64,000 nt of DNA from a virus (lineage: Duplodnaviria; Caudoviricetes), in IMG/VR virus record IMGVR_UViG_3300014205_000175, positions 32,001-96,000 of that record. One strand, 5' to 3'. Shown one piece after another: positions 37,930 to 45,532 of this stretch. How positions within the stretch are numbered: the first letter of the stretch is position 1; every line of letters begins with the position of its first letter. The notes under the pieces are model-generated. The model saw only the letters and a program-made list of their open reading frames with translations, had not been told where the DNA came from and did no database searches. A program made the position numbers and the translations under genes.

Positions 37930-38346
37930 ATGCTCATTTCAGCAGCAGCTATCCAGCATTTGCGTCAGCAAGAAATTCAGAAACATCCGGATGAACGCGT
38001 CTTGATAGGTTCTCCGTGTGAATATTTTTTCATGACCTACAATGAAGATTCTGATAATGTAGTCTGTGGTGTGAAAGCTGTAATCATAGAACTTAGCAAA
38101 TTTTCCACCGAGACTGAAGTGTTTGCTGCCGATCTAGCGATTCTATCTCACGTACCGGAAATGTACGTGCGGTGTGAAGATTTGAAAGTTGTTGGGAGGA
38201 AACTTACTGACGCCGATGGTGATGAGTCGATTTGTTTTATCGAGGCACAGCACTACAAAGAAATCATTCAAACCATTAATGACAACTATCGACCAAATTC
38301 CAGTAGTCTTCGGCTGGTTTGGTCTAACGATAAGAAAGATCAATAG
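37930..38346 (+). CDS. Hypothetical protein
   Basis: 138 aa with GAGG RBS. Confidence 0.55.
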   Translation: MLISAAAIQHLRQQEIQKHPDERVLIGSPCEYFFMTYNEDSDNVVCGVKAVIIELSKFSTETEVFAADLAILSHVPEMYVRCEDLKVVGRKLTDADGDESICFIEAQHYKEIIQTINDNYRPNSSSLRLVWSNDKKDQ

Positions 38347-38356
38347 AGGTATCATC

Positions 38357-38980
38357 GTGCAAACCATCAAAGTCAATACTCGTGAAGAACTCATCGCTAT
38401 CGTCCGTGCTGCAGCACCTGACGCGGATCTGAATCACTTTGATGTGAGCGACATCACCGATATGTCGTGGGTATTCTGTAATAGTCAGTTCAACGGTGAC
38501 ATCTCGGGATGGGACGTCAGTCGTGTCACCGATATGGACGGTATGTTCAACAGTAGCTCGTTCAACGGCAATATCAGCCGATGGGATGTATCGCGCGTTA
38601 CTGATATGTATGCAATGTTCGCCGATAGCTCGTTCAATAGCGACATCTCAGGATGGGATGTATCGCACGTTACTGACATGGCTGGCATGTTCGGCGACAG
38701 TCAGTTCAACGGCGATATCAGTCACTGGAACGTATCAAATGTCACTGACATGGCTGGCATGTTCGCGTATAGTCACTTTAATGGTGATATCTCGGCGTGG
38801 GATGTGGGACAGGTTATCGACATGGAAGAGATGTTTGGCGATAGTCAGTTTAATGGTGACATTTCTAAATGGAACGTTAGCAACGTCATCAACATGCGAT
38901 GGATATTCAGCGACAGTCAGTTCAACGGTGATATCAGTAGTTGGAACATCAATCCCGGAGCTAGTGTGACACCAGCATAA
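38357..38980 (+). CDS. DUF285/BspA-type repeat protein, copy 1
   Basis: Eight 22-aa repeats of the form WDVSxVTDMxxMFxxSxFNGDIS; GTG start at 38357 after GAGG. Confidence 0.9.
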   Translation: MQTIKVNTREELIAIVRAAAPDADLNHFDVSDITDMSWVFCNSQFNGDISGWDVSRVTDMDGMFNSSSFNGNISRWDVSRVTDMYAMFADSSFNSDISGWDVSHVTDMAGMFGDSQFNGDISHWNVSNVTDMAGMFAYSHFNGDISAWDVGQVIDMEEMFGDSQFNGDISKWNVSNVINMRWIFSDSQFNGDISSWNINPGASVTPA

Positions 38981-41915: not shown

Positions 41916-42254
41916 ATGAGCACAACAGTGAGCGTAGAAAACAAGTACCGAGAACTTCTGGCCATTGCCAAAAAAGTGAGCGCTCTGGTGGCTGAGCATC
42001 CTGAGTATCTGCATGAGGATGCCGATGGTGGAGGACACAAATGGTTTCATGCCGAACACCCGGTCCAAGACGAACTCGATACGTTCCTATGCGGTAACTT
42101 CATCACCGACAAAGGCCAGTACTCGACGCTTTACTATATTCTTCAGCACCGTGCCAGACAACATGGTATACGGCTGTGGACCGGGGAGCGCGACAGCTTC
42201 GGACCCCTCGTAAGCTGCATGAGCTACGATGGTTGGGCGTTCTCGTTCGGGTGA
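41916..42254 (+). CDS. Hypothetical phage protein
   Basis: 112 aa with AAGGAG RBS; C-terminal GERDSFG motif. Confidence 0.65.
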   Translation: MSTTVSVENKYRELLAIAKKVSALVAEHPEYLHEDADGGGHKWFHAEHPVQDELDTFLCGNFITDKGQYSTLYYILQHRARQHGIRLWTGERDSFGPLVSCMSYDGWAFSFG

Positions 42255-42355
42255 GTGTCAAGCCCAGTGCTACAGCCCCAGTGGGGCTGTAGTGCTTTTT
42301 TTCACCTCTGTCTTCGGTAAATCGTATGGTCATCACATATATCTAAAGGTGCATC

Positions 42356-43117
42356 ATGTCGATCATCAAGTTTACCGAAACCAAGCTCACGAACAGTGGC
42401 AAGAAGGGAGTGTTAAAACCCGATGAAAATGGCTATTACGAGATCGTTATTGGTGGTCTCAATACTCTTAACAGCGCCGGTGAGTACTACGTGTATGAGA
42501 GCGCCAAGCATCTATTCGAGCAGTCTTCGTCGTTCATGCGGCGCATCAAAAGCGGTTGCCTAAAAGGCGAGCTCGGTCATCCTAAGCGCACCCCTGGTAT
42601 GAGCGCTGACGACTATCTACAACGCATCATGACGATCGAAGAGACCAACGTCGTCTGTCACTATGCGGATATCTACCTCGATACGGATTTCGGGCGCAAG
42701 AACCCACAGTTCAAAAACCCTCAGTTGGTAGCGATGATCGCGAAGGTCAAACCGGCTGGACCTAAGGGCGCATGCCTGCAAGCAAGCATTGACAACCCTA
42801 GAGAGGAAGTGTGTTTCTCGATTCGGGCACTGACCAAAGACCAGTACGTCAACGGCCGCAACGAGCGCACTCTGGTGCAGATCATCTGTCACGACGTTGT
42901 GACCGAACCCGGTATCGCCATTTCGCGCAAATGGGAGAGTCCTGGACTAGAGAGTATCTCTGAGACCCCGATCACAGTCAAGCAGCTAGAGCGCATGGCT
43001 GAACGCTCGCATGGGAATCTCGCGATGGAGTCCATTGGTAGTCTCGCTAAAGAGACGCTGAAGATCGTCGAATTTACCTCACGTCCTATCGCGGCACCTC
43101 GCTACTCTCAATGGTAA
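42356..43117 (+). CDS. Prohead (head maturation) protease (phiKZ gp175-like)
   Basis: LKGELGHP (His), FSIRA (Ser), DVVTEPG (Asp); C-terminal GLE|S and AME|S self-cleavage-type sites. Confidence 0.88.
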   Translation: MSIIKFTETKLTNSGKKGVLKPDENGYYEIVIGGLNTLNSAGEYYVYESAKHLFEQSSSFMRRIKSGCLKGELGHPKRTPGMSADDYLQRIMTIEETNVVCHYADIYLDTDFGRKNPQFKNPQLVAMIAKVKPAGPKGACLQASIDNPREEVCFSIRALTKDQYVNGRNERTLVQIICHDVVTEPGIAISRKWESPGLESISETPITVKQLERMAERSHGNLAMESIGSLAKETLKIVEFTSRPIAAPRYSQW

Positions 43118-43228
43118 ATCTTACGCCCATCACACCGCTAAACAGGTGGTGTGATGGGCAATATTTCTAGCGTCCGTTGATGTTATAAGGAGGTGTGTGG
43201 TAGAATTTATCTGACTTATCTTTGAACG

Positions 43229-43243
43229 CATATATAGTACTTG
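43229..43243 (+). promoter_or_regulatory. Early-promoter-like motif CATATATAGTACTTG
   Basis: Motif copy 84 bp upstream of the mini-tnpB ATG. Confidence 0.6.
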
Positions 43244-43326
43244 GCAATATAGCCCTAGATCTTAAATTACCTTACTAGCTTACACTTATAGTGTAGTTTG
43301 CCCCTCAATCACTCCAAGAGTCTCAC

Positions 43327-43494
43327 ATGCCTCAAAAAGCATACCGAGTGCGTCTGTACTCGACTCCTGCGGAGCAGGAGGTACTACGTCGTACCATAGG
43401 TACTATGCGAGTTACGCCTGATCGCTCACATATACCGCAGGGCATGCGGAAATCAACGCTTGTGGAGAGTAGGTGCTGTAAGGCCGCTCAGTGA
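43327..43494 (+). pseudogene. tnpB: Internally deleted tnpB (55-aa mini-ORF)
   Basis: Translated by hand: MPQKAYRVRLYSTPAEQEVLRRTIGTMR (IS605 OrfB N-terminal motif) joined in frame to IPQGMRKSTLVE (TnpB C-terminal tail); RuvC and zinc finger absent. Confidence 0.8.
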
Positions 43495-43550
43495 AACAAG
43501 AATCCTCTCGCCAGTAGGCAGAGGAGTGTCAAAAATTTGTCGTACAGAAA
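43425..43550 (+). ncRNA. IS200/IS605 TnpB omegaRNA-like scaffold and right end with putative guide
   Basis: ACCGCAGGGCATGCGG hairpin, AACGCTTGTGGAGA, TGAAACAAGAATCC, subterminal hairpin CCTCTCGCC-AGTA-GGCAGAGG and terminal GTCAA at 43528-43532. Confidence 0.7.
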
Positions 43551-43707
43551 AACAACATCGACCTGTTTGTTGTAGAGTCTTTAGCTGGGTATGATGAAAA
43601 GTTGTTCGTCGAATTGCCGGCTAAGTCTTTCATGGACGTACAGGATTTCAGTTTTAACACCTGAGCTGCGGCGGGTCTCCGTAGCATATCTGGAAGGAGT
43701 TTTTAAA

Positions 43708-44160
43708 ATGAAGTTGAAATTCGCACAGGAAATCCAAACGCTCATCGATAACATTGCTGCTTTGCCTGATACAGCATCCACCGATGAAGAACTGAACAGG
43801 CCCAACAAGCTCATTACTGATTTTGAAAACTCACTTTTAAAGCAGCAGAACAATCGAGAAATAAGCACAAAACAGTACGCCAAACTAAGAAGGCAGGTAA
43901 GTTACCTTTGGGAATTCCTGAAAGCAGCTAGAGATACTGCTTTGAAAAACCAGAACATCACAATCGAGCAGCTAAACCGAAATAAAGCTCAGCCTGACAA
44001 GCGTGATGTTTACCGTCATTTCGTTACCCACATCAAGCTCGTTGAAAACGGTGAAGTTTTGAAACATGTAACCTATGTCAAACACGCTCTGAGATATGGG
44101 GTTTTGCAGCTATCTGACTATGAGGTTCATAATCTCATCAACGGTAACAAAGTAGCCTGA
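43708..44160 (+). CDS. Hypothetical protein
   Basis: AAGGAG RBS before MKLKFAQ; A-rich; followed by a hairpin at 44168-44200. Confidence 0.6.
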   Translation: MKLKFAQEIQTLIDNIAALPDTASTDEELNRPNKLITDFENSLLKQQNNREISTKQYAKLRRQVSYLWEFLKAARDTALKNQNITIEQLNRNKAQPDKRDVYRHFVTHIKLVENGEVLKHVTYVKHALRYGVLQLSDYEVHNLINGNKVA

Positions 44161-44282
44161 CGTGTTCTGTAGCCGGCCCGAGATGATCGGGCCGGCTACA
44201 TCGAAGTGCAGTACGGTGAGTCTGTCCGTAATGGTTTAAGAGAGGTAGCACGAGTAACCTGTGTCGGAAGAATTTATAACCC

Positions 44283-44297
44283 CATATTTAGTATGTG
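44283..44297 (+). promoter_or_regulatory. Promoter-like motif variant CATATTTAGTATGTG
   Basis: Intergenic variant upstream of 44402. Confidence 0.5.
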
Positions 44298-44401
44298 GTA
44301 TATACAGTACCAGATTGTTCGCCACACACGTAGAAAAAAATACGGTTCTACCACACCCTGTGGAGCTGTGCTCTAGTTTCTAACATACAAGGAGATTCAC
44401 C

Positions 44402-44899
44402 ATGACTCAAGAGAAAAAACTGTCGCTCAAAGATGAAGTCCTCGCTCTGGCCAAAGAGATCCGCTGCAAAGTCGAACTCGATACCGACACCGGTGTCGTT
44501 AGCGGTGACACGACGAGCGTCTACAACGAACATCTGCCTGATGGTCTCACGCCGTCGCTGGTCAAATCGCTGTCCGAGTACAACACTACTTATGTCGCAG
44601 CCGGTACCTATGCGGTGGGCGAAATGGCGGTCGAAGCGTTCCAGAAGAACTCCAAGATCGATCGTGTCGTCAGTGAGCTGCATCTGGGCTATAAGGATTC
44701 GTTCGAAGTGGCGTTCGATCGTCGTACCGAGACGAAGAACAATCTGCAAAAAGACGCTGACGGTAATCCGGTGACGATTACCAAGTACGGCGCCTGCAAG
44801 TTCAGCCTCAATGTCAACTCGGCCAACAATGTCGGGCAGCTGAAGATCGCACGCTCGCTGGTCAGCCAGATGGCAGCCGAAGCTCTCGGCAAGTGTTAA
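44402..44899 (+). CDS. Conserved jumbo-phage protein, probably abundant
   Basis: 165 aa with AAGGAG RBS, strong C/G-ending codon bias, own terminator at 44911-44955. Confidence 0.7.
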   Translation: MTQEKKLSLKDEVLALAKEIRCKVELDTDTGVVSGDTTSVYNEHLPDGLTPSLVKSLSEYNTTYVAAGTYAVGEMAVEAFQKNSKIDRVVSELHLGYKDSFEVAFDRRTETKNNLQKDADGNPVTITKYGACKFSLNVNSANNVGQLKIARSLVSQMAAEALGKC

Positions 44900-44983
44900 C
44901 TCGTTAGTGTCCTTCCCACCGACTATTAAGTCCGGTGGGAAGGGTGTCTTTTTTTCATTGTATCACACTAGGTTGCACTATAA

Positions 44984-45532
44984 ATGACGCACCAAATGAA
45001 TCTATCAGACGACCGTGTAGATATCTTCATGGCCTCTGATGACTTCTACACCTATCTGGGTGGGATCTACAAGGCATTCTGTCTCTCTGAGGTTCAAAGC
45101 TCCTACAGTAAGATTAGAAACATTGTTGGCGATCGACTCATTAGCCAGGAGCTCTCAACAATCTCAGAGACAACACGTTTTTCTTTGTCAATCAAGATGA
45201 CTACCGCTCACGGCAGATATCTACTCATCTACGCTTTTGATCTAGCAGCCCGATCACGTCAACTACTAGAGAGTCTTGTGGGCATATGTACTGCCAAACA
45301 CAATCTTATTCCGATCACACGAGAAGAGATTCACACCCGTGTTAGCTTACCTACTAATCTCATAGTCAACACATACGCTGGTGACACTGAGAACTCCTTT
45401 CACCTTTTTGAAGAACACAGTAGTTATGGTATCGTGACTAAGTTACTTCCAGTACCCAAGGATCACCGTACAAGCCTCAGGAAGCAGCGTTCGGGTCTAG
45501 CAGGTGTGTTGGTATTCCATGACGATAAATAG
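44984..45532 (+). CDS. Hypothetical protein
   Basis: 182-aa ORF ending at a 14-bp hairpin (45532-45565). Confidence 0.5.
   Translation: MTHQMNLSDDRVDIFMASDDFYTYLGGIYKAFCLSEVQSSYSKIRNIVGDRLISQELSTISETTRFSLSIKMTTAHGRYLLIYAFDLAARSRQLLESLVGICTAKHNLIPITREEIHTRVSLPTNLIVNTYAGDTENSFHLFEEHSSYGIVTKLLPVPKDHRTSLRKQRSGLAGVLVFHDDK

Follow-up and report, generated by a model that had tools for sequence, protein, structure and literature searches.

A probable tnpB relic retaining its omegaRNA scaffold and right end behind a promoter of a phiKZ-like phage

The locus at positions 43229-43550 of the window, as the whole 64,000-nucleotide stretch of DNA analysed is called here, is probably a non-autonomous relic of an IS605/IS1341 element, devoid of its left end and internally deleted, whose transcription would be passive and which would need the arrival of a compatible TnpB in order to act. 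It joins a fragment of tnpB to an omegaRNA scaffold and a right end, behind a phage promoter (all features given below lie on the plus strand). As no compatible nuclease is present in the assembly, this mini-element is most likely an inert hitch-hiker. Nuclease-less tnpB derivatives that keep their omegaRNA are an already known kind of remnant; tnpB elements commonly end in this way, and the relic would be a further case. The motifs quoted in the first-pass annotation of this DNA, with TTGAT at 43177, TCAA at 43529-43532 and the following bases from 43533, were all found in place when checked against the sequence.

The window is part of a virus record of 202,826 bases, whose DNA is present in a landfill metagenome run. 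The genome codes for PhuZ, for multisubunit RNA polymerases and for a nuclear shell protein of 610 amino acids (phrog_4795, E 1e-84; chimallin structures, E 5e-26); directly downstream of the chimallin gene (G000 C1 115935-117767; L145 3936-5765) lies that of a non-virion RNA polymerase subunit. By its gene content the phage is phiKZ-like and nucleus-forming. The gene flanking the mini-element encodes a Peptidase S80 head protease, whose best named relatives are found among jumbo phages. CheckV rates the record as 75% complete, and the corresponding ENA assembly measures 205 kb. Coding sequence that is repetitive and tail-fibre-like is found at both ends of the record (G000), and breaks in the ENA contig fall at about the same places, so that the CheckV estimate may understate how complete the genome is. 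Upstream of the chimallin gene, six similar-looking ORFs of 366-412 amino acids with related N-termini (G000 C1 106696-113424) could form an array of paralogues, and repeat proteins with 22-residue DUF285/BspA-like units are encoded at window positions 38189-38980 and at about 149050-149350 of G000 C1.

The best preserved part of the mini-element is the omegaRNA core scaffold (43424-43532), which, as judged from the sequence, is complete, with no decay in its predicted stems and pseudoknot. About 100 related 3' ends were gathered, 38 of them were aligned leaving this locus out, and the covarying stems found were used to build a covariance model (R1). A covariance-model search had been called for in the first-pass annotation; it gives a full-length match here (119/119 positions, 77.4 bits) that falls within the 37-123 bits of elements with a full tnpB but is partly circular, since the related elements had been picked with motifs from this very locus. 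A more independent check is offered by the pseudoknot that joins the stem-1 loop to the terminal TGTC: among the relatives, loop and scaffold end covary (GGACA or GGGCA with TGTC, GGGCG with CGTC, GGAAC with GTTC), and the mini-element retains 4/4 of the pairs. Stem 1 occupies 43435-43449 with the loop GGGCA, stem 2 pairs 43459-43463 with 43496-43500, and stems 3 and 4 are present as well; the motifs CCGCAGGGCATGCGG, AACGCTTGTGGAGA and TGAAACAAGAATCC start at 43435, 43455 and 43492, respectively. Stems 1-4 and the loop-to-end pseudoknot of a TnpB omegaRNA core are thus all represented. In the ISDra2 omegaRNA the terminal bases likewise pair with the stem-1 loop, and a core of 116 nt is enough for activity (PMC10097598).

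The IS200/IS605 right end (43500-43532) comprises GAAT at 43500-43503, a subterminal hairpin at 43503-43525 and the terminal TCAA site at 43529-43532, as in derivatives of the IS605/IS1341 group; it folds with -13.5 kcal/mol and is also supported by the alignment of relatives. The annotated claim of an intact omegaRNA and IS605 right end is hence borne out. This structural support comes from comparison and not from folding energy, the minimum free energy fold of 43400-43560 alone being no better than that of shuffles (z -0.84). A scan of 42000-45000 against Rfam, which holds no family for this scaffold, returned a chance snoRNA match only, and exact scaffold patterns had no match in viral and genome collections.

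What remains of tnpB is a 55-codon ORF (43327-43494), whose residues 1-29 correspond to the TnpB N-terminal HTH and whose remainder is the junction plus the scaffold read as protein. Residues 3-29 match PF12323 (HTH_OrfB_IS605; E 4e-6, above the cut-off, 25.7 bits) and the ORF aligns with positions 1-27 of the TnpB model NF038281 (E 0.03), which identifies it as a tnpB-derived coding sequence of the IS200/IS605 family, IS605/IS1341 group. The RuvC and the zinc finger are absent from it, and the full TnpB with RuvC D-E-D and zinc finger of an intact IS1341-type element is missing. The likeness to the TnpB N-terminus stops near residues 28-29 and that of the 3' end starts at 43432, the approximate deletion junction lying at 43411-43431. 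The distance from ATG to ACGC is 129 nt here versus about 1100-1190 in most full elements; therefore about 1.0 kb of tnpB is gone. The surviving fragment scores lower as an HTH than intact chimallivirus TnpBs do (25.7 versus 31.8-36.9 bits), and a conserved YP of TnpB reads YS (among 31 intact TnpBs, proline in 28 and serine in 0). By codon use the whole ORF scores as non-coding (-6.3 bits), no standard ribosome-binding site was found for it, and searches for homologues of the mini-ORF gave nothing usable. The first-pass annotation had described an in-frame union of a TnpB N-terminus with a TnpB C-terminal tail. Its N-terminal half stands, and a full TnpB in L005 ends in exactly the same tail, IPQGMRKSTLVE, but the in-frame join is at chance level (1 in 3) and carries little weight, since 22 of 30 full TnpBs stop before the scaffold stretch and only 3 read into it in the frame of the residual ORF; for the most part the tail is a translation of the RNA scaffold.

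From their position relative to TCAA, the 16-20 nt that follow the right end (43533-43552) are predicted to serve as the guide. At exactly the right-end cut begins a start-less open frame of 43 codons (43533-43664) with phage-like codon use. Its codon log-odds of 12.9 bits corresponds to the 71st percentile of the real genes of the phage, a score reached by 2.2% of off-frame windows and by 0 of 20000 shuffles. The guide would read the interrupted gene, of which this coding-like frame is most likely the 3' part; the gene was probably small and early. The geometry of IS605 insertion ordinarily makes a guide point at the empty allele. The bases that had been proposed as guide begin at the stated position and read as the interrupted phage gene, as any IS605 insertion gives. 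No homologue of the peptide encoded by the flanking frame was found, nor usable relatives of the downstream 150-aa gene. In the phage genome the guide has no second match (12 nt, 1 mismatch; with or without TAM); external matches to the guide and to TTAT plus guide (14 viral, 5 genome) were put down to chance, as none extends past the pattern.

At the opposite side, the motif CATATATAGTACTTGG at 43229-43244 is akin to the phiKZ/OBP early-promoter consensus and resembles the consensus table compiled for phiKZ, 201phi2-1 and OBP (PMC7058600). The promoter motif reported in the first pass is genuine: CATATATAGTACnTG occurs in 20 plus-strand copies in the phage genome versus 0-3 in simulated sequence, the copies being mostly 36-119 nt ahead of a start codon, and at this locus the 16-nt form and the ATG of the residual ORF are 82 nt apart. 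The promoter would be an early one, and the locus would be transcribed from it. Several intact chimallivirus tnpB genes are also placed behind TATATTA-type promoters; the promoter may therefore predate the deletion, having simply driven the full tnpB, and is no sign of selection for a stand-alone RNA. A further copy of the motif is found at window positions 44283-44298, and all copies in the genome are on the plus strand. The three sigma-70-like sites found upstream are no more than chance would give.

The upstream boundary of the unit is a strong terminator-like hairpin of 15 pairs after the head-protease gene (43125-43159; the fold of 43118-43180 has -30 kcal/mol). Between this hairpin and the promoter, the TTGAT at 43177-43181 had been compared with the ISDra2-type TAM. 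The pentanucleotide is there, but it is rejected as TAM or left-end target: it lies 48 nt upstream of the promoter, appears in 30% of region shuffles and has no left-end hairpin behind it, and in related left ends TTAT is found 13-17 nt before the left-end guide in 11/11 cases. The sole family-type target tetranucleotide downstream of the promoter is the TTAT at 43286-43289, a weak candidate for the old left junction; the four TTAT of the region make chance a likely explanation, and the left-end hairpin is absent there. No family-type left end with subterminal hairpin, a pattern present in relatives, was found upstream of the mini-element. When the flank was attached in turn to every TTAT and TTGAT upstream, no convincing gene start with a ribosome-binding site resulted. 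An IStron, which would have a group I intron core at its left end, was also considered and discarded, with only about 80 nt from promoter to ATG and no Rfam intron match in 42000-45000.

The 203-kb assembly, rated as 75% complete, holds no other tnpB, tnpA or omegaRNA scaffold, and no PF01385 or PF07282 match was found in the phage genome. The genome-wide search that had been suggested for tnpB or tldR genes, sibling mini-elements and TAM-plus-guide targets returned none in this assembly, which deprives the proposed loading of a TnpB or TldR in trans of its cognate protein, sibling element and target. A TldR system, in which a full-length but nuclease-dead TnpB carries a guide directed at a promoter, was not seen, the assembly having no TnpB-fold protein and no second target. 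Signs of mobility (an empty-site allele or sibling copies) were also sought and none was found: the mini-element is single-copy and was not found in close relatives, and the closest of these, 67-70% identical in the neighbouring protease and not syntenic, carry other genes at that place, so that no empty site can be read from them. Near-identical short pieces of the phage, including 43166-43316, come from a groundwater run of a second study; none crosses the junction, and they are uninformative about full or empty alleles. Among the sequencing runs listed for the phage DNA there is no RNA run.

Loss of the nuclease is frequent among the relatives. In the 57 related loci with enough upstream sequence, tnpB is full in 30, a fragment in 9 and lacking in 18 (27/57 nuclease-less), and the scaffolds of truncated or protein-less relatives score as high as those of full elements. 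The nearest parallel in architecture, in a Succinivibrio MAG (L029), fuses TnpB residues about 2-35 to the 3' end with scaffold and right end intact; it differs in residing in a bacterial chromosome, in keeping the last zinc-finger/RuvC-III codons and in having other copies in that genome.

The most similar scaffold found is that of the intact TnpB of Klebsiella phage vB_KvM-Eowyn (NC_070650, 219712-220806; L001/L122). Five cultured chimalliviruses carry full-length TnpBs at eight loci, namely Eowyn, EL (L117/L149), Miami (L118/L150), VB_ZK_P1 with three copies (L119/L148/L151/L153) and phiKp_32 with two (L120/L147/L152), and at least seven of the eight proteins have all three RuvC catalytic motifs. 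Each has its own scaffold, and no orphan scaffold was found in those five phages. The pseudoknot of these scaffolds is apparently retained (loop GGTCT with AGAC; in Eowyn GGGTA with TACC), stem 4 is shortened and no IS left end was seen at any of the eight loci; TATATTA motifs precede the intact tnpB of Eowyn, that of EL and one copy in VB_ZK_P1. These tnpBs share with the mini-element the chimallivirus-type hosts, the lack of a left end, the stem-3 loop motif and, in several cases, the type of promoter. They are full-length but have lost the long right-end hairpin and the TCAA, whereas the mini-element shows the reverse pattern. The stem-3 loop motif is common to all eight chimallivirus scaffolds and this locus and absent from 71 other scaffolds, and a chimallivirus-resident origin of the mini-element is plausible; as a chimallivirus-specific mark the motif was rejected, since five viral contigs unlike this phage proved on a direct scan to contain it as well. 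The chimallivirus TnpBs resemble free-standing RNA-guided homing nucleases. The literature searched returned no paper on TnpB in chimalliviruses, or on TnpB in connection with nucleus-forming phages and homing.

The mini-element can be compared with other derivatives that depend on a protein supplied in trans. PATE-like minimal IS200/IS605 elements of G. stearothermophilus encode omegaRNAs for use in trans (Meers et al., 10.1101/2023.03.14.532601); both they and the mini-element are nuclease-less, keep the right end and the omegaRNA and would need TnpB in trans. The PATEs, however, have both ends and no coding sequence, while the mini-element keeps 29 tnpB codons, occurs only once, lacks a known parent in the genome and stands behind a phage promoter; it falls outside the PATE definition because no family-type left end lies upstream. 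Stand-alone omegaRNAs, as summarised in PMC10691335, are also guide scaffolds lacking an effector and work in trans, their role being called unknown there; according to the same source they occur in genomes that also have the effector, whereas no effector was found here. With the ISDra2 omegaRNA (PMC10097598) the mini-element shares stem 1, stems 2-4, the pairing of the stem-1 loop with the terminal bases and a guide after TCAA, but it belongs to another sequence family, its relatives insert after TTAT instead of TTGAT, and the protein is absent.

Taking these features together, we propose the following course of events. An IS605/IS1341-type tnpB element would have inserted into a small phage gene, whose 3' part, to judge from its coding signal, is now the right flank and supplies the guide. 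The left end and the start of the interrupted gene, both missing today, would then have been lost, leaving tnpB directly behind the phage promoter. The internal deletion of about 1 kb, which would have come afterwards, has taken the region coding for RuvC and zinc finger and spared the 3' scaffold. The locus is probably transcribed from the phage promoter. TnpB requires its RuvC for omegaRNA maturation, and apo TnpB processes longer RNAs (PMC10278001); since the RuvC is needed to mature the RNA, the locus is unable to act alone. By itself it can neither cut DNA nor mature its RNA, and in the absence of a left end it is not movable as a unit by TnpA. Only with a compatible TnpB present would it act like a stand-alone omegaRNA, aimed at the uninterrupted allele in related phages.

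The reading as a relic is favoured by the survival of an HTH fragment only, the lack of any other tnpB, tnpA or scaffold in the 203 kb, the lack of a left-end hairpin, the coding-like flank that starts at the right-end cut, the replaced proline, the lower HTH score, the abundance of truncated relatives and the single copy. Against it, an undecayed scaffold beside a drifted-looking protein fragment could denote selection on the RNA, the promoter closely matches the consensus, a tnpB may lie outside the 75% complete assembly, and compatible nucleases may be supplied by co-infecting phages, the closest scaffold being that of Eowyn. The first of these points is also the best argument for a working stand-alone guide cassette, an explanation that we consider unlikely: the early transcript would be loaded and 5'-processed by a TnpB that either an unassembled part of the genome or a co-infecting chimallivirus encodes. 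The complex would cut the uninterrupted allele of a sibling phage in the phage nucleus, and the cassette would spread by recombination or harm competitors. In favour of such a cassette, the scaffold is complete with its pseudoknot intact, the promoter is genuine and the guide reads the interrupted gene, and eight full-length TnpBs with the stem-3 loop motif in common exist in five cultured chimalliviruses; stand-alone omegaRNAs act in trans (PMC10691335) and apo TnpB processes longer RNAs (PMC10278001). However, the assembly has no TnpB, an empty allele or sibling was not found, the stem-3 motif also occurs in the five unlike viral contigs, most chimallivirus scaffolds differ in pseudoknot sequence and have a short stem 4, and orphan scaffolds were not seen in the five cultured chimalliviruses. 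Homing guided in trans through the TnpB of another chimallivirus is, in our estimation, about as improbable; somewhat less probable still is the stricter version, in which the promoter-driven, nuclease-free guide RNA of a nucleus-forming phage hijacks the TnpB of co-infecting chimalliviruses and cuts their uninterrupted flanking gene.

The remaining explanations are considerably weaker than the relic. A promoter and an intact scaffold with no nuclease would also suit a decoy, as had been suggested from the sequence; like an RNA anti-CRISPR, the scaffold, made early in infection, would sequester a host TnpB. The guides of host TnpBs, on the other hand, target their own insertion sites and not phages. 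Moreover, this phage encodes chimallin and PhuZ, with which a decoy fits poorly: the phiKZ nucleus already shields DNA, excluding Cas9 and protecting against Cas12a (10.1101/370791). We regard the decoy as very unlikely, and place at the same low level the idea that the RNA guides a nuclease-dead TldR-type repressor or that the 55 amino acids form a functional inhibitory peptide; the open, in-frame ORF speaks for it, but that frame arises by chance in one of three joins and is rare in intact genes, the codon use is non-coding, neither a standard ribosome-binding site nor a homologue was found, and the genome offers no TnpB-fold protein elsewhere and no target besides the flank itself. Least credible of all is an assembly artefact that collapsed a full tnpB. 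The origin is metagenomic, and the three assemblies with this arrangement may all derive from one sample, the Logan contig perhaps from the source sample; but the ENA assembly shows the same arrangement with identical gene spacing, and collapse is disfavoured because the Logan contig (depth about 52) reads through the entire stretch and shows neither a difference nor a gap or joint.

As a relic, the mini-element shows that in chimallivirus tnpB genes the guide scaffold can outlast the nuclease. Were it loaded in trans, it would amount to an RNA-guided gene drive in two parts, acting between nucleus-forming phages, and would give a hint at the purpose of stand-alone omegaRNAs, a role called unknown in PMC10691335; were the hijacking of a co-infecting phage's TnpB true, a split system for RNA-guided homing or competition would be at work inside the phage nucleus. 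The intact, end-less TnpBs of the five cultured chimalliviruses are a better lead, testable in laboratory phages such as EL. Among the collected relatives there are also very short protein-free elements with an omegaRNA scaffold, in a Selenomonadaceae MAG (L087), in viral contigs (L115, L103) and at L064; in L115 and L103 a left-end hairpin precedes the scaffold ACGC by 70-120 nt, and L064 and L087 have in common a leader that is conserved at three sites. The contigs L006 (three scaffolds), L008 (two), L162, L163 and L165 contain more than one omegaRNA scaffold or orphan ones, at a distance from any tnpB.
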